This document shows, one piece after another, positions 21,789 through 59,346 of a stretch of 64,000 nt of DNA. The position numbers and the translations under genes are program-made. Under the pieces are notes generated by a model. It did not search any database, was not told where the DNA came from, and saw only the letters and a program-made list of their open reading frames with translations. This DNA is from a bacterium BMS3Abin14 (GTDB taxonomy: Bacteria > BMS3Abin14). Each line of letters starts with the position of its first letter. The first letter of the stretch is position 1. Where the stretch lies: the NCBI GenBank assembly GCA_002897695.1, contig BDTG01000041.1:20101-84100 (forward strand), in the 5' to 3' direction.

Positions 21789-21873
21789 TGGTGCGAGAAG
21801 GGGGACTCGAACCCCCACACCGTAAGGTACTGGGTCCTAAACCCAGCGCGTCTGCCGGTTCCGCCATTCTCGC
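21789..21873 (-). tRNA. tRNA-Leu(UAG), type II with long variable arm, CCA encoded
   Basis: Acceptor GCGAGAA/UUCUCGC, anticodon stem-loop CUGGG-UUUAGGA-CCCAG, long extra arm and T-loop UUCGAGU. Confidence 0.85.
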
Positions 21874-21905: not shown

Positions 21906-22050
21906 ATTGTCGCCGTTTCGGCGGCTGGATAAAAATGGTTTCTAACAGGATTACAAGTTTTTTGGAAGAGGGTTCGTGTCTTTCCGCCCTGCATGGAGGG
22001 GGGGCCTTTCCCCCGCGAAGTGGCAGGCCGCCATATGTCCCGTCGCCAAT

Positions 22051-22779
22051 TCACGAAGATCGGGCTGGGTACATCACCGCAACGCGATTGCTGATATGCT
22101 CCACTACGCTCAGATCATGGGAAATAAAGAGGTAGGTCAGGCCAAACTCCTCCTGTAGGTCCTGAAGGAGATTTATCACCTGGGCCTGGATGGAAACATC
22201 CAGGGCGGACACGGCCTCGTCACAGACGATGAGGCTCGGGTTAAGGGCCAGCGCCCTGGCAATTCCTATGCGCTGCCTCTGCCCTCCCGAGAACTGGTGA
22301 GGATACCTTCTCATATGTTCTTTCTTCAATCCGACGTATTCGAGAAGTTCCTGAACCCTGGCGTTACGTTCAGACCGGGTCGACATTCCGTGCACCAGGA
22401 GAGGCTCTCCGACAATGTGGGACACGTTCTTCCGGGGGTTTAGGGATGAAAATGGATCCTGAAAAATGATCTGTACTTCCTTGCGCAACGCTCGCATACG
22501 GGCCTTGTCAAAAGCGAGGATATTCTCTCCCCTGTAGAGCACCTCGCCGGCGGTTGGATCGAGAAGCCTCAGGAGAAGAAAGCCCAGAGTGGATTTTCCG
22601 CATCCCGATTCTCCCACCAGTCCCATGGTCTGCCTCTCGGGGATTGTGAGGCTGACCCCGTCCACAGCCTTCACGGATGCAACCTCACGAAGCAGGGCGC
22701 CTCCTTTTACAGGAAAATACTTCACCAGATCCCTGATCTCCACCAGAGGGATCTCTCTGCCTCCTGGATCTTCAGCCAT
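22051..22779 (-). CDS. oppF: Oligopeptide/dipeptide ABC transporter ATP-binding protein (OppF/DppF-like). The ABC domain is complete but the conserved C-terminal extension is missing.
   Basis: Walker [10 protein letters not shown], signature FSGGQRQR, Walker [13 protein letters not shown] and H-loop ISHDL. It ends right after RVAVMY, where homologues continue about 70 aa more. Confidence 0.65.
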
Positions 22780-23635
22780 ATTTATGACAGCTAACGGTGT
22801 GCCCTGGTGCAACCTCGACCTCCGGGGCCTTTTCATGGAGACATTCGTCCATGGCATCCGGACAGCGTTCACAATAGTTGCAGCCGTCCGGCAGGGAGAA
22901 AAGCGAACAGACCGTACCGCCGATGGTGGTAAGCCTCCTGCTTTTCCGAGAATTCAGTACGGGCATGGAGTTTAACAGCCCGACGGTATATGGATGTCGC
23001 GGATCATGAAAAAGATCCTCCACCCTGGCCATCTCCACCACCCTGCCGCAGTACAGCACCACGACCCTCTGTGCCATCTCGGCAATAACCCCCAGGTCGT
23101 GGGTAATAAACAGGATTGAAGCGTTGGTTTCCTCCTTGAGCCTGTTCATCAGGTCAAGGATCTGAGCCTGGATGGTCACATCAAGAGCTGTGGTCGGCTC
23201 GTCGGCTATCATCAACCTCAGATTGCAGGCGAGGGCCATGGCAATCATCACCCGCTGCCGCATTCCACCACTCATCTGGTGGGGGTGGTCGTCGATGCGA
23301 TCTTCGGGAGCCGGTATACCCACGAGACGAAACGCCTCTATAACCTTCTCCCTTGTCTGCTTCCGCGAAAGTCTATGGTGGTGCTGTATGACCTCGGCGA
23401 CCTGATTACCCACGGTGTATACCGGGTTCAACGATGTCATCGGCTCCTGAAAGATTATGGAAATCCGGTTTCCGCGGATTTTTCTCATGCGCGATTCAGG
23501 CGCCTTTAACAGGTCCTCTCCCTCAAAGAGGATCTCACCGCCGGCGATCCTTCCGGGAGGGGATGGGATCAGCCCCATAATGGCGGCGGCCGTCACCCAA
23601 CAGGTTGAAGCCCAGAACCCCCAGGAATATGGCAA
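22772..23635 (-). pseudogene. oppD: oppD/dppD remnant lacking the N-terminal ~55 codons, including the Walker A
   Basis: Homology begins at [25 protein letters not shown], which is OppD residue ~50 onward. It retains LSGGMRQR, Walker B and a C-terminal Cys-rich tail, but no GxxGxGKS is upstream in any frame. Confidence 0.6.
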
Positions 23636-24021
23636 TGCCGGGTAAAGCCATTACCCACCAGGCCCGGAGGATCAGGGAACGCCCCGAACAGAACAGCGAT
23701 CCCTACACTGACGACTCCGACCATGAGGGAAACCCTGGCCCCGAATATAATTCTGGACAGGATGTCCCTGCCCAGGTCATCCGTCCCCAGCAGGTTTTCG
23801 GAACTCCCTCCCTGTTGCCATATCGGAGGCTTCAGCTGATCGTAAAGGGAATTTTCAATGGGATCGTGGGGACTGAGAACCGGGGCAAACAGGGCGGCAA
23901 GGACAAACAGGGTGATCAACACCAGACCGAGCACACCGGTCCTGTTCTTCAGCAGCTTTTCAAGCTGGTCGAAAAACGGGTGTCTGTTTTCCGGATCCGT
24001 AAATCTCGTGATCAAGCCCAT
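23560..24021 (-). pseudogene. oppC: oppC/dppC remnant: the N-terminal ~115 aa are joined by a frameshift to the last ~30 aa
   Basis: Frame A reads ...GTDDLGRDILSRIIFGARVSLMVGVVSVGIAVLFGAF and then stops. Frame B reads ...[25 protein letters not shown], the OppC C-terminus. About 140 codons of the permease core are absent. Confidence 0.6.
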
Positions 24022-24053
24022 AACGATTATAAACTTCCTTTTCTAACCATCAT

Positions 24054-24219
24054 CTGTTGATGGACTCGCAAAAAGTCCATTCGTGGCTTTTTGCTCAACG
24101 GAAAGCGGAAAATGTCATTTTCACTTTCCTTACAAATCAACGACTTGCGCTGCAAGTCATCGATTTGGGCGCCCTTAAACGGGCGCGTTGATGACTTTTT
24201 GCGAAGTCATCAACTGTTG
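24054..24219. repeat. Intergenic repeat element copy E1, about 165 bp, with imperfect terminal inverted repeats
   Basis: ctgttgatggactcgcaaaaagtcca ... gactttttgcgaagtcatcaactgttg. The core tggctttttgctcaacggaaagcg-aaaa-tgtc-ttttcactttc...acaaatcaac-acttgcg is about 85% identical to the copy at 58700-58887. Confidence 0.75.
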
Positions 24220-24560
24220 CTGATTCGCGGGTTGATGACAGCGTACAGAATGTCAACGATGAGATTGACCATCACGAAGGTGGCGGCCACGATCATGGTG
24301 CCCCCCTGGATAACCATGTAGTCCCTCTTGACGACCCCCTCGAACAGCCACTTCCCTACCCCCCCGCCAGGCGAAGACGGTCTCGGTCAGTATCGCCCCA
24401 CCCAAAAGGATGCCGAATTGAAGACCGATTACTGTTATCACCGGGATGAGACCGTTACGGAGGGCGTGTTTGAACACGACCCTGGTTCGGCTCAATCCCT
24501 TGGCCTTGGCCGTTCTGATATAGTCCTGGCGCAGGACCTCCAGCATGGAGGATCGAGTCA
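24210..24560 (-). pseudogene. oppB: oppB/dppB C-terminal fragment (last ~115 aa), with a frameshift in a C7/G7 run
   Basis: [65 protein letters not shown], then after a shift at 24359-24365 [48 protein letters not shown]. The N-terminal two-thirds are replaced by IS sequence. Confidence 0.6.
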
Positions 24561-25780
24561 TCTGCCTGAAGCGGCGTTTGCCCTGGCCGAACTTGCCTTC
24601 AATTGGAATCCGGTCAAGTTCATCCTGGCGCTGTTGGAGTTTTCTGTCCAGCATGTCTTGCGTGTTCTCGGGGGTGTTCTCGGGGGTTTTCTTCGGAGGA
24701 CGCCCCAATGGTGGCCCGGACATCCTGATACTCCCCTGTTTCTTGCAGTATCTACGGTTGTCACGTGTTCGATAAATAGCATCGCAATGCACCGATTCCG
24801 GATAGCAGCCAAAGCGTTGTTTGTAAGTCTCGATCTGTTCAATCAGATCACCGGACTCGTTAAAAGGATTCCAGTCAAGACGATCCAGGAACACGAAACC
24901 ATTAACCAGACTGGCTGACAGTTTGGCACCGAATTCCGTCGGCGCGGACGCTTTGCCGCGAACAATCGGACGGACATGTGGTTGGCTGATGCTGACAATC
25001 CGACCGCTGATCCGATGGCAGCAATTCTCATACATCCACTGTTGTTGGCGATAAAGTTCGTGGATCACCAGCAAGCTCTTGTATTGACGACGGTCAAGCA
25101 GGGTGAGTGACGTCTGTTCGGCAAGTTGTGCAATGGTGTTGAGATTGCGCCTGAGAAAGCGCAACTGTTGCCCCAGAACCTTACGGATCTGCCGCGCTGA
25201 ATGCTTGCGGCTTTTGCTGTACTTCAAAAACAGACGACGAGCTTTTTGTCGATAGGTGCGCGGCTTCTGTTTGCCCGGCACGGACAAGGGCTTCGTTGAC
25301 CTGGTTGAGTTGCTCCAGGCTGAAGCGATGGCGAAAATACACGAACATTGGCGAGTCGAACGGTGCTTCATCGCGGAATTCGTGGAACCCGAGAAAGTAT
25401 TGCAGATACGGGTTCTCACGAATCTGCTCCACCGCTTCTTCATCACTAACACCAAGGCGCTCTTTGATGATCAGGGCACCGAGAGCAACACGGGCAGGCT
25501 TGGCCGGAGCACCTTGACCGCTTTGAGAAAACTGTTTTTCGTAGAACGCCTCGGCGGTATCCCAAGGGACCATACGCGCCAGGATAACCCAGCGGTTATC
25601 GCTTCTGAGCTTGCCACCGAAAGGAAGGTAGAAGTCTTCAAAAGCCAATTGATTATCGGGTGTTGTTCGATACATTTGTGACCGCCATGTGCAAGGGTTT
25701 TAAGGCTAACCAACTATTTTTCTTGCACATATTAGCATGCAAACGCGGGGTTTGTCTAGTGTTTTCAGTAGGTTACGTAT
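24560..25780 (-). mobile_element. IS5-family (IS1182-like) insertion sequence remnant. The transposase is split across two overlapping frames (25675-25181 and 25455-~24575) and its 3' end is deleted.
   Basis: OrfA is MYRTTPDNQLAFEDFYLPFGGKLRSDNRWVILARMVPWD (DUF772-type N-domain). OrfB has the DDE region ...[60 protein letters not shown]...[14 protein letters not shown]. It then runs in-frame straight into the oppB tail, so the right end and its IR are missing. The left boundary is approximate. Confidence 0.7.
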
Positions 25781-25789
25781 TTTTCAGCA

Positions 25790-26172
25790 AGCCCTACGTA
25801 TGCCGGATCATTAAGGCGGACCCTACATTGCGTGCCACAAAAGTGATCATCGTTACCGGAGACGACAGCGCTGCGACCCGGGAGCTTTATAAGGGATTGG
25901 GATGTGGCGCTGTTCTTAATAAACCCTTTACCAAAAGCGATATCAATTCAACTGTGGGAAAAGTCCTCGGTGTCGGCACCAGACAGATTCACAGGGTCAA
26001 CACTGTAATACCATGTCTCGTACGAATTGGGCCGGGAGGATATGACTGTCGAATCCTGAACATATCCGCTTCGGGAATGTATATTGAAATTGATTTTTTG
26101 CCTGAGCCGGGCCGGAATTTTGAAGTCGAGTTCATTGTTGACTATATTGAAAATATCTCGCCTGACAGTTGA
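25790..26172 (+). pseudogene. 5'-truncated response-regulator receiver + PilZ domain gene
   Basis: Homology starts mid-REC (IIKADPTLRATKVIIVTGDDSAATRELYKGLGCGAVLNKPF) and continues into PilZ (RQIHRV ... NISASGMYIE). The phospho-acceptor half of REC is absent because the IS lies upstream. Confidence 0.5.
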
Positions 26173-26562
26173 TGGACTTTGGGTTGGCAATTGTGGCATA
26201 AATGCAACCCCTTGCGTGTCGAGTGTTGCAAAATCAACACATGGCTGTTGTTATCCATCGCCGGCGAATTTGCCAGATTTCCGAATAGTTCATGTCCTCC
26301 ACTCAGGTCATGGACAGATCGCGACGGCCTGGAAGAAGGACCATCCTCAGGAAATTCATGATTTTATCTTTATTTTACATCCAGTTATAATCATCATCAC
26401 TCTTGTGCCGGCCCCATAATTTGCCCCCGGCCCTGTCCATACCGAAGGCTTGCCCGCAGGTTTTGAAGCCACAGCTGCGCTCGGCATGTTTATTGCTTCG
26501 CCTCACGTGTTGTCACGGATGAAACCACGTAACCGGCGGCCCAATAAAAGAGGAGATAAACG

Positions 26563-26813: not shown

Positions 26814-27821
26814 CTACAGCCCTTCATTGTCCATCCCCTCCCCCCGGACCAGCAGCCACACGAAAAACGGCCCCCCGAGGAGGGCTGTGATCACCCCGAC
26901 CGGAATCTCGGCCGGGGCGATGATGGTCCGGGCGAACGTATCGCATATTGTCAGGAAGGCGCCGCCGAAAAGAAGGGTGGCAGGGGCGAGGTAACGGTGA
27001 TCCTGCCCTATGATCAGTCTGCAGATATGCGGTGACATCATCCCCACAAACCCGATGGGGCCGCATACCGAAACTACCCCTCCCACCATCAGAGAGGCGG
27101 CAAAGAAGATTCCCCGGCGGACGGATTTGACATTAACCCCCCGGCTGGTCGCCATCTCCTCGCCTGTGGTCATCAGGTTCAGTTCGTTGGTCAGGTAAAG
27201 GATAATGAGGGCTCCCACTACCACGAACGGCAGCATGTCCAGGACGGACCGGAATCCTACCACCTCCAGACCTCCCATGAGCCACCGGATAATATGAAAA
27301 GTCTGGGTAAAATCGCTGATGTACTGGATGAACAGGTTAACGCTGGAGAAGAAGAAGCTTATAGCCACACCGGCCAGCAGCATGGTTCCGGTGGAAAAAC
27401 CGGATCGAAGGCGGGTCAGGCCATACACTAAAAGGACTGAAAGCATTGCTCCCATAAAGGCCGAAACGGAGATGCCCGGGATTCCCAGCAGGGCGGCCGG
27501 CAGTCCGAAACGGATATAGGCGGCCGCGCCGAGGGCGGCTCCGGATGACACGCCCAGGGTAAAGGGGGTCGCGAGGGGGTTTCTGAAAAGCGCCTGAAAG
27601 GACATGCCGCTTACCGCCAAGCCGACTCCCCCCAGAAAGGCGACAAACACCCTGGGTACGCGCAGCCTCCAGAATATCTCGCTCTCCCGGCTCCAGGAAG
27701 CGGGGTGTATGACCGCATCCAGCGGAATGGTCCGCATCCCTATCAGCGGCCCGATGATGAGCGCCGACACGGCCAGAAATGCCAAAATAATCAGGATAGC
27801 GGGTCGGCGGCCGAAGGTCAT
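26814..27821 (-). CDS. btuC: FecCD/BtuC-family ABC permease (cobalamin/iron-siderophore type)
   Basis: About 9 TM helices with FecCD-family conserved stretches (LLVRGEG-like tail, GxxxxGP internal motif). Overlaps the btuD stop. Confidence 0.85.
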   Translation of the reverse strand: MTFGRRPAILIILAFLAVSALIIGPLIGMRTIPLDAVIHPASWSRESEIFWRLRVPRVFVAFLGGVGLAVSGMSFQALFRNPLATPFTLGVSSGAALGAAAYIRFGLPAALLGIPGISVSAFMGAMLSVLLVYGLTRLRSGFSTGTMLLAGVAISFFFSSVNLFIQYISDFTQTFHIIRWLMGGLEVVGFRSVLDMLPFVVVGALIILYLTNELNLMTTGEEMATSRGVNVKSVRRGIFFAASLMVGGVVSVCGPIGFVGMMSPHICRLIIGQDHRYLAPATLLFGGAFLTICDTFARTIIAPAEIPVGVITALLGGPFFVWLLVRGEGMDNEGL

Positions 27822-28621
27822 TGCCGCATGACCTCATCCGGCAGAACGATCATCCGACCCGACTGAGGGTGTGGGTAGAGGAAAAACCTCCTGTCGTAGA
27901 TCGCCTCCAGGATGCTGTTGTCCATGAGGCCGGCCGGCTGCCCCGTAAACCGCACGGACCCCTCCTTCAGGGCAACGACCCGGTCGCCGTTTAGCACCGC
28001 GTCGTTGATGTCGTGCGTAACCGCGACTACGGTAATACCCTCCTCCCGGTTCAGCCTTGTCAGAATTCCCAGGACATCTTCTCCGTGCTTCGGATCGAGA
28101 AACGTCGTGGGCTCGTCGAGCAGAAGCACTTTCGCCCCCTGGGCTAATGCCGCCGCGATGAGCACTCTCTGGCGTTCCCCTCCACTGAGAGTCCCCATGG
28201 CCCGGCGGTAAAACCTTTCAGTGCCTGTGATCTCCATGGCCCTTTTGACCACCTCGTGGTCCCCGGGACTCACCGCCGAGAAGGGACTCAGGTGAGGATA
28301 GCGCCCCATGAGGACGAACTCACCCGCTGAAAATGGAAGCGTACGGATATCAGCCTGCGGCACATAGCTGAGCAGGGTTGCCAGTTCTTTCTGGGAATAT
28401 TCCTCCAACGGCCTGCCCGAAATTCTTATTTCCCCCCGGCCGCCGATGTTGATCCGGTCCACACACTTCAGCAGCGTCGTCTTGCCCGCCCCATTGGGAC
28501 CGATAACGCAGAGATACTCCCCCTCATATACGCACATGGAGACTTCATGGAGGATAACCGTCCCGCCTATGCTGTAGGAGTAGTCGGCAATCTCTATTAT
28601 CCTGCGCCCGCTTATTGTCAT
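27818..28621 (-). CDS. btuD: ABC transporter ATP-binding protein (BtuD/FecE-like)
   Basis: Walker A GPNGAGKTTLL, LSGGERQR, Walker B LLLDEPTTFLD and H-loop VTHD. Confidence 0.85.
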   Translation of the reverse strand: MTISGRRIIEIADYSYSIGGTVILHEVSMCVYEGEYLCVIGPNGAGKTTLLKCVDRINIGGRGEIRISGRPLEEYSQKELATLLSYVPQADIRTLPFSAGEFVLMGRYPHLSPFSAVSPGDHEVVKRAMEITGTERFYRRAMGTLSGGERQRVLIAAALAQGAKVLLLDEPTTFLDPKHGEDVLGILTRLNREEGITVVAVTHDINDAVLNGDRVVALKEGSVRFTGQPAGLMDNSILEAIYDRRFFLYPHPQSGRMIVLPDEVMRQ

Positions 28622-29577
28622 TCCCAGTGCGCCTCAGGGTGTATCACTTCCGCCATCCTCTCCAGGAGAAGAATAAACCGGGGTCCCGGCACCACCACGT
28701 AATCCTGGTTGAGTACGTAGACCCGGCCTTTGCTCACCGCGGTAAGCCCGGGGATGGAACGCCACTTCTCCAACATCTTTTCGTCAGTCTGTGGGTCCGT
28801 CACGTCGGGAACCATCTCGATGATCACCTGGGGATTGAGCCTGGCGACTCCCTCGGCGGAGAGGGCCGGGAACTTCAGGGTGTCCTTTGCATATGCGTTT
28901 ATCCCCCCGGCCATGGAGATGAGCTCATCGTAAAATCCGTCCCGTCCCGAGATATAGACCGCTCCGGCCGCTCCGGTCTGAAGACTCCTTCCCACCGCCA
29001 CCATGACCGTGGGTTTATTGAGGTCCTTTGTCATGGCCTTTACACGCTCGATCCTCTTTTCCGTTTCCATCAGGATCTTATCGGCTGTCTTCTTCGTCCC
29101 GGTCTTTTCACCAATGAGCCGTATTGATTCCATGATCCCATCAACGCTGCTGTGGTCCACCGTCAGGGTTTCGATCCCGAGCCGCTTCAGATATTCACGT
29201 GGTTTATCGTGCTCCTTCATCAGGACAACCAGGTCCGGTGCGGCGGTGATGATCGCCTCATAATTGATGTCGAAGTATCCCCCGATCTTGGGCTTTTCCA
29301 GCGCCTCCGGCGGATAGTCGCAGTACCGTGTAACCCCGACGACCCTGTCACCCAGGCCAAGCGAGAAAAGCACCTCTGTGATGCTGGGGGCCAGAGATAT
29401 GATGCGCTCGTAATGCAGAGGTTGATGGGGCGGCGGGGCGGCGGGGCGATCCAGACGGACGATGGTTGGATTCTGAGGCTCACCTTGGCCGAAACCATAC
29501 AGGAGGAAGCCCCCGGCGGCCAGAAGGGCAATAGCTGTGATGAGGATCAGGAGGCGCCGCATGTTAATTCCCCGCAT
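28618..29577 (-). CDS. btuF: Periplasmic cobalamin/iron-complex binding protein (BtuF-like)
   Basis: Signal peptide and a class III SBP fold pattern (RIISLAPSITEVLFSLGLGDRVVGVT...DLVVL). Confidence 0.8.
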   Translation of the reverse strand: MRGINMRRLLILITAIALLAAGGFLLYGFGQGEPQNPTIVRLDRPAAPPPHQPLHYERIISLAPSITEVLFSLGLGDRVVGVTRYCDYPPEALEKPKIGGYFDINYEAIITAAPDLVVLMKEHDKPREYLKRLGIETLTVDHSSVDGIMESIRLIGEKTGTKKTADKILMETEKRIERVKAMTKDLNKPTVMVAVGRSLQTGAAGAVYISGRDGFYDELISMAGGINAYAKDTLKFPALSAEGVARLNPQVIIEMVPDVTDPQTDEKMLEKWRSIPGLTAVSKGRVYVLNQDYVVVPGPRFILLLERMAEVIHPEAHWE

Positions 29578-30382
29578 CCGTCATTTGGAAAGAATAGGCG
29601 ATCTTTCTCGTGGATGATACGGAAAAACCTGCTGCACTCGCAGGTGAAAAACGTGCCTTTTGAAGGGCCTTGACCGCCGCCCGGTCAAGCATGGAAAATC
29701 CGCTTGACCGGAACACCGAGACGCCGCCCAACCCTCCGTCCCTTCCTATCCTCACCGAGAGGATGACCTTTCCCTCCTGACCCCGTCTTCTGCACCAGGC
29801 GGGGTATATGGGCTCGGGCAGATCGGTTGCCTCTGCCCTGATGAAATCAAAACCCGGATCATTGCCGGAGATACCACCCGGAAGGCCCTCCCTGGGGGGG
29901 ACGGCCCCATAGGCAAGCATGGGCTGCTGCGGTCCCGTTCGGCCTGTTTGAAATGCATGGTCTCGATCAGGGGCGCCGGAACTGCCGGGGGGTGCGGGCG
30001 GGGGCGCGTCCTTTCCGGCTGTTGTTTCCCGCTCCGCTTCGTGAGGTGAGCCGGGCGGAGGAGGCGCTGGGGTTTTCATCTCGGCAGCCGCGATCCGCTC
30101 CCTGACTACCCCGGGTTTTTGGACCGGCGGCATGGCCTCCGATTTCGGAACCGTTTTTTCAGTTTTGGACACCGGTGATACCGGGGAAACCGAGCGAACC
30201 CGGCCGGCGGCGGGAGCCACGGATTCACTGTGTCCAAATGATACTATATCCACGACTATCGGACCGGCAGCCGCGTCGGGAGGGGCGATCCCGTTTCCTG
30301 ACCCGGACTGTCCCAGTACCAGGGCGATCAAGGCCGCATGAATCCCCAACGAAAGGGACAGGGGCCTGAAAAGGTCCATCAT
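29564..30382 (-). CDS. tonB: TonB family energy transducer
   Basis: N-terminal TM, Pro-rich spacer and the C-terminal TonB domain (YPAWCRRRGQEGKVILSVRIGRDG...). Confidence 0.8.
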   Translation of the reverse strand: MMDLFRPLSLSLGIHAALIALVLGQSGSGNGIAPPDAAAGPIVVDIVSFGHSESVAPAAGRVRSVSPVSPVSKTEKTVPKSEAMPPVQKPGVVRERIAAAEMKTPAPPPPGSPHEAERETTAGKDAPPPAPPGSSGAPDRDHAFQTGRTGPQQPMLAYGAVPPREGLPGGISGNDPGFDFIRAEATDLPEPIYPAWCRRRGQEGKVILSVRIGRDGGLGGVSVFRSSGFSMLDRAAVKALQKARFSPASAAGFSVSSTRKIAYSFQMTDAGN

Positions 30383-32241
30383 AAATCCGCTCTGAACCCG
30401 AGGTATCCCGATATTCCGGGCGTACCGTAGCCTAGAACTGTCTGGTAATCCTCATCAAGGAGATTTTCGACCCTGCCGGTGATTTCGAACCCATGGGCAA
30501 CACTAAATGCGCCCGACAGATTGACAAGGGTATATCCGTCCAGCGTTACCCTGACAGGTGTATAGGTTGGTGGAGGGAAATCGAGGTCGGCGTTATCACC
30601 GACATAGAGAATATCCAGCCCGACGTGGCTCCCCGTTGACGGGCTGTAGTCCGCGGTAAACCCTATGCTGTCCCGGGGAACACGGAGCAGTTTCTCTCCG
30701 GTTGCCTCATCCTCTGACCGCGTATATGTGTAGTTGAGGCTCAGTTCGACCGAATCCGTCAGGAACAGTCTGCTGATGAATTCCAGACCGCTGGTATTGG
30801 CCCCGAGGGTGTTCTGGTAGGTCATGGTGCCGAAATCGAAGTCGATGAGGTTGTCGAACCTGTTGTCAAAATATGTCAGTCCAAGAGAAGCCCTGCCGCC
30901 CATAAGATCCTGGTCTGCCCCGACATCCCAACTGCCACTTTCCTCCGGCTGAAGTCCTGGATCTCCGTAGATGGAGAAAAGCTGGTAGAGGGACGGGGCC
31001 TTGAACCCTGTACCGTAGGTCGCCCGAAATCTGGTTCCCGACTCATGCAGCAGATACGCGGCGGTGAGGCGGTAGGTCGCCTGTGTTCCAAAGTCGCTAT
31101 GGTCGTCGATCCTGGCCCCCACCGTGGTGATGAACCTTCCGCCCATGTCGTTTTGCTCCAGAAAGTAGATGCCTGTCGTGCGTGCCTTCTTCTCGGCAAA
31201 GGTATCCGTCTTCCCTCTTTCCTTCCCGGATTCCGCCCCCACTGTCAGGGTAACGACGGGGCTGAGATACAGGTTGTTCTGCCAATCCAGCTTGACCAGG
31301 CCGCTGTCGAATTCGCTCCTGTTGGGAGGATTGATATCGTTGCGGCTGTTGTCCGTATAGGAGATGCCCACGATCTGCTCCCAGGCGCCTCCTGCCAGGG
31401 AGATGGTCCCTTGCCCTCGCATAATGAGTTCCTTCGTACCCGAAACGTGGTCCGGGTCATCCCCAAAGGCGCCCCCGAAATTGTCCAGATCGGCCTTCGC
31501 ATCGGAATATCGAAATATGAGATCCAGTGCGAGACTGTCGGAAGGTTCAATGCCAACCTTGCCCGACCAGGTAGTATTAGTATATCCGTCCTTCTCCGTG
31601 TTGCCGTCCCTCTCGTCGGCAGCCGATATGCCGTCGGTGTCGAAATGCGAGAGGGAAAGGGAGTAGTTGCTTCGGCCGGTCCCCCCGCTGGCCTCTACAG
31701 CTCCCCGGATCGTCCCGAAGGAGCCAGTCTCACCTGTCAGCACTACATGGGGTTTTCCCCTGCCCCTCCGGGTGATGATGTTTATGACCCCGCCAATGGC
31801 GTCCGAACCGTAAAGAGGGCTTTGCGGACCGCGCAGAACCTCGATCCTCTCGATGTTGTCCGTTGTCAAATTGGCGAAGTTGAAGATTCGCCCGGTGGAG
31901 ATGGGATCGTTGACCTCCACACCGTCAATAAGGACCAATGTGTGTCCTGATTTTGCTCCCCTGATGAAAACCGTGGCCGTCTGTCCCGGGCCGCCGTTGA
32001 CGTTGATTTTTATTCCCGGCACCCCTTCAAGGGCCTCCAGGACGGTTCTGGCCCCTTTTCGCTGGATATCCTCGGCGGTGATTACCGTGATCGAACTTGC
32101 GACCTCCTCGATGGGGGTCTCAATACGGGTGGCTGTTACCACGACCTCCTGAACGTCCTCTTCTCCGGCCCCTGCCCAAAGGTAAGCTGGACTGGAAAGC
32201 ACCATGACCAATACACCCGTGATCAGCGCAGTTTTGCCCAT
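30379..32241 (-). CDS. btuB: TonB-dependent outer-membrane receptor, BtuB-like. Start ATG 32241 with RBS aggagtga; the track ORF is extended to 32268.
   Basis: Signal peptide, plug domain (TonB box-like VVVTATR, IEVLRGPQSPLYGSDAIGGVINIITRRG) and a C-terminal barrel ending in an aromatic residue. Confidence 0.85.
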   Translation of the reverse strand: MGKTALITGVLVMVLSSPAYLWAGAGEEDVQEVVVTATRIETPIEEVASSITVITAEDIQRKGARTVLEALEGVPGIKINVNGGPGQTATVFIRGAKSGHTLVLIDGVEVNDPISTGRIFNFANLTTDNIERIEVLRGPQSPLYGSDAIGGVINIITRRGRGKPHVVLTGETGSFGTIRGAVEASGGTGRSNYSLSLSHFDTDGISAADERDGNTEKDGYTNTTWSGKVGIEPSDSLALDLIFRYSDAKADLDNFGGAFGDDPDHVSGTKELIMRGQGTISLAGGAWEQIVGISYTDNSRNDINPPNRSEFDSGLVKLDWQNNLYLSPVVTLTVGAESGKERGKTDTFAEKKARTTGIYFLEQNDMGGRFITTVGARIDDHSDFGTQATYRLTAAYLLHESGTRFRATYGTGFKAPSLYQLFSIYGDPGLQPEESGSWDVGADQDLMGGRASLGLTYFDNRFDNLIDFDFGTMTYQNTLGANTSGLEFISRLFLTDSVELSLNYTYTRSEDEATGEKLLRVPRDSIGFTADYSPSTGSHVGLDILYVGDNADLDFPPPTYTPVRVTLDGYTLVNLSGAFSVAHGFEITGRVENLLDEDYQTVLGYGTPGISGYLGFRADL

Positions 32242-32393
32242 TTCATCACTCCTCGCCCGGCCATGCAATGTAAAAACTTCCCGGAGACGAAAAAATCCCG
32301 GACCTCTTTATCGAGATCCGGGATGCCGTTTTTCATCCGTCTTTGACAGCGGTCAGACCCTGGCCGCGAGGGTTCCGTTCGCTCTGTCCAACA

Positions 32394-32560
32394 GGCAGGT
32401 CTTCTGGCTTCCGGATTACCCTACTCGCCGCGCCTTCCCGCCCTTCGACAAGCGCAGGACTAACCCTGGACTTCCTTTGAGCAGTGACTAATTGCGGCTT
32501 TCGTCCCCGGTTACAGCGGCGGGTCCGCGACGGATTCTCACCGTCTTCCCTTGGCCTGTT
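32394..32560 (-). ncRNA. Cobalamin (AdoCbl) riboswitch in the btuB leader
   Basis: The minus strand reads AAGGGAAGACGGUGAGAAUCCGUCGCGGACCCGCCGCUGUAACCGGGGACGAAAGCC ... AGUCACUG ... GGGAAGGCGCGGCG ... AGCCAGAAGACCUGCC, which contains the conserved stems and the B12 box of RF00174. A hairpin plus U-run (ccggatctcgataaagaggtccgggatttttt) follows as the expression platform. Confidence 0.8.
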
Positions 32561-32704
32561 AAATCAACAGTAGGGCACGATCGTCGGGATGTCAAGAATG
32601 GCGAGGCCTCAACGCATGGATCTTTATCTAACAGGGATGAAGGGGATAGAGGGGATAAACCTGCCATAAAACCCTATTTTGCCTTGTTTGCAGTGAGGTA
32701 CGCA

Positions 32705-42340: not shown

Positions 42341-42406
42341 CGTTAAAAGTCCACCTGTCTGCATGCAAGCACAGGCAGGTTCGCGACTTTTTGCAAAGTC
42401 ATCACG
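42341..42406. repeat. Intergenic repeat/hairpin element E4 in the ftsA-ftsZ gap
   Basis: ttaaaagtccacctgtctgcatgcaagcacaggcaggttcgcgactttttgcaaagtcatcacg. The frame A-run-GTC [GC-rich palindrome] GAC-T-run is shared with the other copies. Confidence 0.7.
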
Positions 42407-58699: not shown

Positions 58700-58887
58700 A
58701 CATGGTCGCAAAAAGTCCACTTGTCTGCGTGCAACGCACAGGCAGGTTCATGGCTTTTTGCTCAACGGAAAGCGAAAAGTGTCCTTTTCACTTTCATCAC
58801 AAATCAACAACTTGCGTTCCAGGCCATTGATTCAGGCGCCCTCATGGATGATGGCTTTGTAAAAAGTCATCATCCATGAGGGTGCCT
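58700..58887. repeat. Intergenic repeat element E2, about 190 bp, in the mraZ-rsmH gap. It ends in a 13-bp perfect palindrome.
   Basis: ggtcgcaaaaagtccac...catggctttttgctcaacggaaagcgaaaagtgtccttttcactttcatcacaaatcaacaacttgcg...ctcatggatgatg-gctttgtaaaaagt-catcatccatgag. Confidence 0.75.
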
Positions 58888-58893
58888 GAGAGA

Positions 58894-59346
58894 TCACAGG
58901 CCAAAATCGGCCAGTTCTTCAGCTATCTGATCGAAATTTTCTACGGCTCGCTGGATCTCCTCATCCCATCGCTGCCGACTCCAGATCTCGATCTTGTGGA
59001 GCATTCCAGCCATGACGACATGCTTATCCAGCTCGGCGGCCTTCCGAAGGGTGGGAGGAACAAGGACCCTTCCCTGTTTATCCATTTCGCATTCAGTGGC
59101 TCCGGAGTAGAAGTAACGGAGAAATCCCTGGACATTGGACTTGAGCGTTGACAGCCGGCTTGCTTTGGATTCCAGAATTTCCCACCTATCGGGTGTGTAA
59201 ATCACGAGGCAATATGGTAGATTGGTGATGATGAGCCGGCCGTTGTGATTTTCTGCGATGACGTCCCTGAACCTGGCGGGAATGGCCAGACGGCCTTTAT
59301 CGTCGATAGTGTGTTCAAAACGGCCACGAAACAGAATTGGGTCCAC
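58894..59346 (-). CDS. mraZ: Transcriptional regulator MraZ (GTG start)
   Basis: Two MraZ/SpoVT-AbrB-like repeats with the DDKGRLAIP and MDKQGRVLVP motifs. Confidence 0.9.
   Translation of the reverse strand: MDPILFRGRFEHTIDDKGRLAIPARFRDVIAENHNGRLIITNLPYCLVIYTPDRWEILESKASRLSTLKSNVQGFLRYFYSGATECEMDKQGRVLVPPTLRKAAELDKHVVMAGMLHKIEIWSRQRWDEEIQRAVENFDQIAEELADFGL

Follow-up and report, generated by a model that had tools for sequence, protein, structure and literature searches.

The stretch of DNA analysed here (the window) comprises 64,000 nucleotides (nt) of contig BDTG01000041.1 from bacterium BMS3Abin14, a metagenome-assembled genome (MAG) whose source is the sub-seafloor massive sulfide deposits of the Southern Mariana Trough (PMC6759336) and which gives its name to the GTDB placeholder phylum BMS3Abin14, 'Ca. 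Hudomiota' (PMC11382960). Window positions 22,002-26,172 hold a block of damaged genes, in which remnants of an oligopeptide-type ATP-binding cassette (ABC) importer operon (opp) and of an IS5-family insertion sequence (IS) lie on the minus strand and a REC-PilZ response-regulator remnant lies on the plus strand. The block is bordered by tRNA-Leu(tag) at 21789-21873, upstream of tig-clpP-clpX, on one side, and by a B12/iron-type ABC uptake cluster, from 26814 onward, on the other. Because the remaining window is densely coding, with neighbouring genes otherwise intact, the decay is local, the damage lying within ~4 kb.

The features were mapped by listing of open reading frames (ORFs), by Pfam and NCBIfam profiles, and by tblastn with the intact OppA-F of two distant operons (L050 and L004), with E-values of the homology matches of 1e-12 to 1e-100, far past chance level. 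In a protein search with the oppD remnant, the nearest intact OppD was P0002 (322 amino acids (aa), 90% identity), encoded on the 2.2-kb contig L102, which also codes an intact 297-aa OppC and served as a DNA reference. The following features were recognized.

22002-22078, minus strand: out-of-frame leftovers of the oppF C-terminal region (tblastn; OppF profile positions 281-288 and 310-332)
22066-22779, minus strand: oppF ATPase core from Walker A to H-loop, ending '...VAVMY' (ABC_tran positions 2-136; DppF profile positions 10-238 of 334)
22772-23596, minus strand: oppD remnant, residues ~49-322 and stop (ABC_tran positions 38-137, oligo_HPY positions 1-65; 90% aa identity to intact P0002)
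23584-23685, minus strand: oppC 3' part, the last ~30 codons, read in a different frame from the 5' part (window 23685-23584 matches L102 1004-1105)
23684-24021, minus strand: oppC 5' part, codons 1 to ~113, with OppC_N and the first transmembrane segments (Pfam OppC_N; DppC profile positions 18-117 of 300)
24022-24209, minus strand: spacer between oppB and oppC, 188 nt long (L102: ~107 nt)
24210-24565, minus strand: oppB 3' third, the last ~117 codons and stop (tblastn to intact OppB residues 190/197-317; BPD_transp_1 positions 70-136 and 153-183)
24359-24365, minus strand: homopolymer of seven G (G7) with a +1 frameshift in the oppB remnant (contig comparison)
24566-25800, minus strand: fossil IS5-family element, 1235 nt left of ~1.7 kb (NCBIfam NF033578; DNA 90-92% identical to the intact copies L107 and L108)
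24664-24687, minus strand: 12-nt tandem duplication (ACCCCCGAGAAC x2, 'TPENTPEN') in the transposase remnant, present as one copy in intact transposases
25257-25276, minus strand: junction of a 215-nt deletion with frameshift in the transposase gene (protein alignment and DNA comparison with intact copies)
25801-26172, plus strand: REC-PilZ response-regulator remnant, where homology to contig L109 begins exactly at 25801

The initial annotation, made from the letters of the sequence and its translated ORFs, had described an opp operon decayed around an IS5-family element, with all four opp genes damaged. Mapping to intact homologues bore this out and carried the decay further, to oppA, to the IS itself and to the REC-PilZ gene. 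OppA of L050 and L004 gave zero tblastn matches in the whole 64-kb window, and the SBP_bac_5-type OppA/DppA binding protein expected of an Opp/Dpp importer operon is missing from it, whereas the relatives L103-L106 do have OppA. A second opp/dpp system was likewise not found in the window by tblastn.

In place of two complete BPD_transp_1 permeases, OppC being the one with OppC_N, both oppB and oppC are partial. What is left of oppB, ~117 codons rather than the ~115 first proposed, is fused in frame to the transposase gene, as predicted, at the junction 24565/24566, where CGCTTCAG is joined to GCAGATGACT. Within it, the G-run was lengthened by a CCG-to-CGG change that turned WPG into WRG; the form with six G (G6) reads WRG. 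The Pro of the OppB WPG motif is present in 3/3 intact references, and its replacement by Arg is a sign of lost constraint. The oppC remnant consists, much as had been proposed (115 plus 30 residues with a change of frame), of ~113 codons of the 5' part, with 84% nt identity to L102 220-580, and ~30 codons of the 3' part. DNA alignment to L102 places a deletion of ~425 nt between them, at ~23684. A tblastn match that ran on past OppC '...GDG' through 'RRHYGADP' was considered as a native OppC tail and rejected, this stretch being oppD read out of frame.

The oppD remnant starts at 'VTAAAIMGL' (23596), and its start overlaps GGTGACGGC, which codes the OppC '...GDG'. A deletion of 190 nt joins oppC to oppD and takes with it the last ~10 oppC codons, a short intergenic gap and the first 48 oppD codons. 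The junction falls within GTGACGGCC (~9 nt), which is found on both sides of the corresponding segment in L102, where position 1283 aligns to window 23596. The reported loss of the P-loop thus stands, Walker A (GESGSGKS) being gone, although the loss amounts to 48 codons relative to P0002 and not ~55. The Q-loop, signature motif, Walker B and oligo_HPY domain are kept. Comparison with the intact opp genes of L102 thereby confirmed the lesions in both oppC and oppD.

The ATG of oppF overlaps the end of oppD, and its core also matches positions 194-239 of an OppF profile made from 117 intact OppF homologues, with signature motif and Walker B kept. The in-frame oligo_HPY region is lost, as the initial annotation had it; the C-terminal region is not simply absent, however, but was reduced internally. 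The last ~23 OppF residues survive in a second frame at 22002-22070 (profile positions 310-332, E 5e-6), and 'GDVPSPI' is read in a third frame at 22058-22078 (profile positions 281-288), a match that is weak alone, yet colinear and with 7/7 consensus residues. The sequence GGTGATGTAC codes both '(A)VMY' and 'GDV', and intact relatives have GCGGTGATGTACC at AVMY and GGGGATGTCCCCAGCC at GDVPS. Judged from these sequences, oppF was most probably shortened twice, by ~140 nt and by 65-80 nt, each time between short repeats; a single loss of roughly 210 nt would be less likely. A protein search with the OppF core returned no intact OppF above ~81% identity, so the oppF junctions rest on protein profiles and dual-frame reading, without a close DNA reference. 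The two ATPases are both incomplete, OppD' lacking Walker A and OppF' lacking an in-frame oligo_HPY; their homology is beyond doubt (E 1e-90 to 1e-100).

The insertion sequence next to oppB is of the IS5 family, as first proposed. Its two transposase ORFs match NF033578 at positions 3-129 and 181-388 of 419 (137 and 192 bits), and an intact transposase ~90% identical to them, P0121, scores 429 bits against a cut-off of 275, in line with a DDE transposase of this family. Intact relative transposases have 510-513 aa, and the copies L107 and L108 are ~1.7 kb long. The left terminus with its inverted repeat (~25780-25800) is intact, agreeing with L107 and L108 right up to its final base, 25800. 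At the other end ~265 nt are gone, including the right inverted repeat and the last 77 transposase codons, and so is the adjoining flank, in which a target-site duplication would be sought; IS homology stops at 24566, from where the transposase frame continues straight into oppB. An inverted repeat is therefore present at the left end and absent at the right. The element has also lost 215 nt internally, at ~25262, where the intact copies carry the repeat ACAGAAGCCG(A)GCA / ACGGAAGCCGCGCA (12 of 14 nt). This deletion takes ~72 codons, among them 'LIVDATCTPADIRYPTD', which we take, by analogy with other IS5 transposases, to hold the first catalytic Asp; the stretch with the first Asp of the predicted DDE triad is thus deleted. 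With this presumed catalytic residue and the right end both lost, the IS would be unable to move. Self-comparison revealed no second copy of the element in the window. The initial annotation had the IS right in family; what it had not seen is that the element is itself deleted at two places and that its sole preserved end abuts REC-PilZ rather than opp.

The REC-PilZ remnant is contained in a plus-strand ORF (25660-26172). Its intact counterpart is the 232-aa protein P0242 on L109 (Response_reg 6-116, PilZ 126-226), a contig from JGI metagenome 3300003886 that belongs to the same species because its DNA is ~99% identical (99.4%) to the window, except for the deletion described here and one short intergenic stretch. 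The remnant lacks the first 64 codons, the phospho-acceptor region included, and the left end of the IS abuts codon 65. The 595 nt of L109 that precede this break are not in the window. A further, in-frame deletion of 132 nt at ~26138 removes PilZ residues 180-223 and is flanked by imperfect direct repeats, GAGTTCATTGTG and GAGCTCATTATTG (10 of 12 nt). Pfam searches of the 400 nt upstream of REC-PilZ in L109 and of orf82 gave zero matches. Between the PilZ remnant and orf82, ~250 nt (window 26234-26480 against L109 1161-1420) are nearly unalignable, with ~99% identity on either side; the stretch 26234-26480 resembles a replaced or hypervariable intergenic cassette.

Since the source is a MAG, the junctions and frameshifts might be assembly or sequencing artefacts covering a truly intact operon. 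Contigs found by exact-protein look-up of the junction-spanning ORFs were compared in this respect. The junctions are the same base for base in MEGAHIT, SPAdes and Logan assemblies of DRR093003-5, in SRR7786992, in GCA_011040875.1 and in ERZ23498652, that is, in at least eight contigs from at least three sequencing projects and three assemblers, at 99.4-100% nt identity. Because the junctions are identical across samples and assemblers, the deletions are not assembly errors, and the deletion wreck is fixed in every sampled population member. In addition, the protein search returned no same-species intact OppD (at least 99% identity), the nearest being 90% identical. What speaks for an artefact concerns other sites: homopolymers are error-prone, and G7 occurs only in the window and NODE_63, against G6 in five other contigs (L084 = L095, L086, L087, L088 and L099); moreover, the related contig L091 (ERZ1742235 NODE_8530) has ends, 1-125 and 1685-1814, that consist of poly-G and Illumina adapter (AGATCGGAAGAGCACACGTCTGAACTCCAGTCAC). 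An intact operon hidden by errors is barely credible on this evidence, the idea being refuted for the deletions. As a separate matter, the artefactual ends of L091 gave spurious 'variants' near 24069-24074, and the contig was rejected as an intermediate haplotype, its divergent ends being poly-G and adapter.

The same contigs qualify the homopolymer frameshift of the initial annotation, which is present in the window with G7 and absent from the five contigs with G6. With one G fewer, the oppB frame is restored, giving a fusion ORF of transposase and OppB (Tnp::OppB) of 334-338 aa that runs up to the native oppB stop. The 12-nt unit is single in NODE_63 (L001 = L085 = L094), L086 and L099 and double in the window, L084 = L095 and L087. 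Among the assemblies, 4/4 combinations of G6 or G7 with one or two 12-nt copies were observed, and both repeat alleles occur within run DRR093004. The four allele combinations point to recurrent slippage or recombination in the population. The lesions, the junction sequences and their reproducibility, and these polymorphisms were all directly observed.

Taken together, the block very probably represents the non-functional remains of three units, namely an importer operon of the Opp/Dpp type (PepT family), an IS5-family element and a divergent REC-PilZ gene. Real frame-disrupting lesions were found relative to intact homologues, which are at hand for oppC, oppD, the IS and REC-PilZ. With no binding protein, no complete permease, one ATPase without Walker A and the other without its C-terminal region, assembly of a transporter is impossible. 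Among the deletions that can be resolved with intact relatives, most have short direct repeats at their ends, namely those in PilZ, the transposase and oppC-oppD and the first oppF deletion (GGTGATGTAC). The process is ordinary deletion-driven pseudogene decay, with no new mechanism or system. Deletional decay of bacterial pseudogenes was reportedly described by Mira, Ochman and Moran in 2001, and short-homology deletions in bacteria reportedly by Albertini et al. in 1982. Microhomology-flanked deletions are a known pattern in bacterial pseudogenes (PMC6054270; PMC2916853).

From the arrangement of the junctions we infer an order of events, a mechanism of deletion and a loss of function. Because its sole preserved end (25800) abuts REC-PilZ codon 65, and not opp, the IS may have landed in REC-PilZ; it would have inserted at codon 65 or have got there by an IS-end-mediated adjacent deletion. 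Short-repeat-mediated deletions could then have piled up by replication slippage or microhomology-directed repair. One of at least ~3 kb would have begun within the IS and taken away the REC 5' end, oppA and two thirds of oppB (to codon ~195), and others would have removed 215 nt of the transposase gene, 132 nt of PilZ, ~425 nt of oppC and 190 nt at oppC-oppD, with one or two more in oppF. Slippage would still be ongoing at the G-run and the 12-nt tandem repeat.

This history agrees with the earlier proposal of an IS insertion followed by several independent deletions in that an IS and several separate deletions are present; the independence of the deletions, however, is not demonstrable. Colinear microhomology-flanked deletions could also arise in one complex event by serial forward template switching, of the type termed fork stalling and template switching or microhomology-mediated break-induced replication (FoSTeS/MMBIR). 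At least six colinear junctions lie within ~4 kb, most with short repeats; no assembly contains a haplotype with only some of the deletions, and almost no substitutions were added in the remnants, all of which would suit a single event. The sampled population, however, is nearly clonal (99.4-100%), so that missing intermediates say little, and a dS (synonymous divergence) of ~1 from the nearest intact opp allows plenty of time for one deletion to have followed another. Deletion in successive steps is also the well-documented default for dead DNA (PMC6054270, PMC2916853), and independent slippage is visibly still going on. A single complex event is therefore improbable, and stepwise deletional decay is preferred.

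Several points weigh against stepwise decay of a dead locus as set out above. The genomes, metagenomes and proteins searched yielded neither an intact opp operon of the same species nor an intact locus in synteny. Microhomology at the oppC internal junction and at the IS-oppB junction is short or indeterminable. Two elements of the history are assumptions, namely an ancestral order with REC-PilZ beside oppA and how large the largest deletion was. The oppF remnant still codes a nearly complete ATPase core. Finally, the raised ratio of nonsynonymous to synonymous divergence (dN/dS) expected of a pseudogene cluster is not seen, and the substitutions give no sign of relaxed constraint: compared with intact L102, oppD has a dN/dS of 0.05 and the oppC 5' part one of 0.09, at dS ~0.8-1, and private amino-acid changes in oppD number 5 in the window lineage and 16 in L102. 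The relaxed selection claimed by the initial annotation can accordingly be deduced from the lesions and is invisible in the substitutions. Low dN/dS implies that inactivation was recent relative to the split from L102; it fits recent inactivation without proving loss of function. In the population, the density of single-nucleotide polymorphisms shows no clear difference from the flanks, a divergence of at most 0.5% giving too little signal, and the 12-nt insertion-deletion polymorphism had inflated the raw counts.

These values bear on whether some remnants are still functional, with OppF' as an orphan ABC ATPase, or with Tnp::OppB or OppD' domesticated under selection. Long ORFs persist, the OppF core has Walker A, signature motif, Walker B and H-loop, dN/dS against L102 is low, the locus is kept in all sampled populations, and public annotation gives fragments as DppC and OppF. 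However, the low dN/dS was measured over a branch with dS ~1 and thus reflects the time before inactivation. OppD' is without Walker A, neither permease is complete, and an invariant OppB Pro is replaced. The Tnp::OppB frame depends on a slippery G-run, and the four allele combinations are the behaviour of an unconstrained sequence. Retained function is therefore very improbable, and the remnants are better read as dead.

Searches for relatives of the operon reached further than L102. A scan of GTDB genomes with the OppD remnant gave best matches only 58% identical, without a close relative, and a scan of JGI metagenomes with trigger factor for a syntenic intact locus gave relatives of at most 56% identity, with no opp beside tig. 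The complete 2.03-Mb genome CP070698.1 (L118) was tried as a syntenic reference and rejected, its oppDF being separate from oppABC. In the more distant relatives L103-L106 and CP070698.1 (76-79% OppD identity), the operon is organized differently: in L103-L106, oppABCD is followed by a YCII-family gene and then oppF, beside ccm genes; in CP070698.1, oppDF stand alone after rnf-like genes, and neither these operons nor those of L103-L106 adjoin tig. The identity between the window and L102 is mosaic, with 93% over the last 137 nt of oppB and 82-84% over oppC and oppD, which, on the aligned sequences, hints at recombination between lineages or very uneven constraint.

The oppB-oppC spacer holds a highly structured palindromic repeat, the 96-nt core of which recurs at 58747-58842 with 85% identity (self-BLAST and alignment). 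The spacer folds at -81 kcal/mol (z = -8.7). Its hairpin GATGACTT...AAGTCATC is palindromic and also occurs at 42385-42403, and a variable-gap pattern gives 4 sites; the regions of the repeated element are window 24022-24215 (minus strand) and 58700-58900. Since L102 has only a single hairpin, the 96-nt core was either inserted in the window or lost in L102. No Rfam family was matched by the spacer repeat, which could be an element resembling repetitive extragenic palindromes or miniature inverted-repeat transposable elements (REP/MITE-like), or a small RNA. On the far side of the block, a cobalamin riboswitch (96 bits) was found at window 32377-32574 (minus strand), with genes for a TonB-dependent receptor, TonB, a periplasmic binding protein, a FhuC-like ATPase and a FecCD permease downstream of it (26814-32268). 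This BtuB/BtuFCD-like B12 uptake cluster adjoins the decayed locus and looks intact.

The importer remnants share the B-C-D-F gene order of Opp/Dpp/Nik-type importers of the PepT family, such as OppABCDF of Salmonella and E. coli and DppABCDF, and their Pfam domains (BPD_transp_1, OppC_N, and ABC_tran with oligo_HPY), the complete set of which is encoded by the intact relatives L102 and L103. Unlike these importers, the window locus lacks the binding protein and has all four remaining genes truncated. No NCBIfam equivalog cut-off for a substrate was reached by the fragments, nor by intact P0002 or the OppC of L102; 'oligopeptide' therefore serves as a generic name, and the substrate could be a dipeptide, nickel, glutathione or something of the kind. 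The IS remnant matches the profile of the IS5 family (NF033578; DUF772 N-terminal domain with DDE_Tnp_1_2), and its left inverted repeat matches intact relatives; unlike intact elements of the family, it has no first-Asp region, last 77 codons or right inverted repeat. Among single-domain-output REC-PilZ regulators, in which Response_reg is combined with a PilZ domain that binds c-di-GMP, P0242 has both domains complete, whereas the window copy is without REC 1-64 and PilZ 180-223.

The locus has in common with other cases of bacterial deletional decay the deletions at short direct repeats, the slippage at homopolymers and tandem repeats, and an IS tied to inactivation. Unlike the host-restricted genomes in which decay is widespread, this bacterium is free-living, uncultured and a member of a candidate phylum, and the damage spans ~4 kb.

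In the databases, the oppC fragment is entered as 'dipeptide transport system permease protein DppC' (GBE15624.1, 142 aa; window 23593-24021), the 253-aa fragment P0330 (window 22051-22812) as 'oligopeptide transport ATP-binding protein OppF', and the oppC fragment of the HyVt MAG (HDL52525.1) as 'hypothetical protein'. Because such fragments carry ordinary product names, metabolic reconstructions of the lineage that include counts of its peptide-uptake genes would be misled. In summary, the locus offers a clean, base-resolved natural case of short-repeat-mediated deletional decay in a free-living environmental bacterium, in which a same-species intact allele is known for one gene (REC-PilZ) and the slippage sites are still polymorphic.

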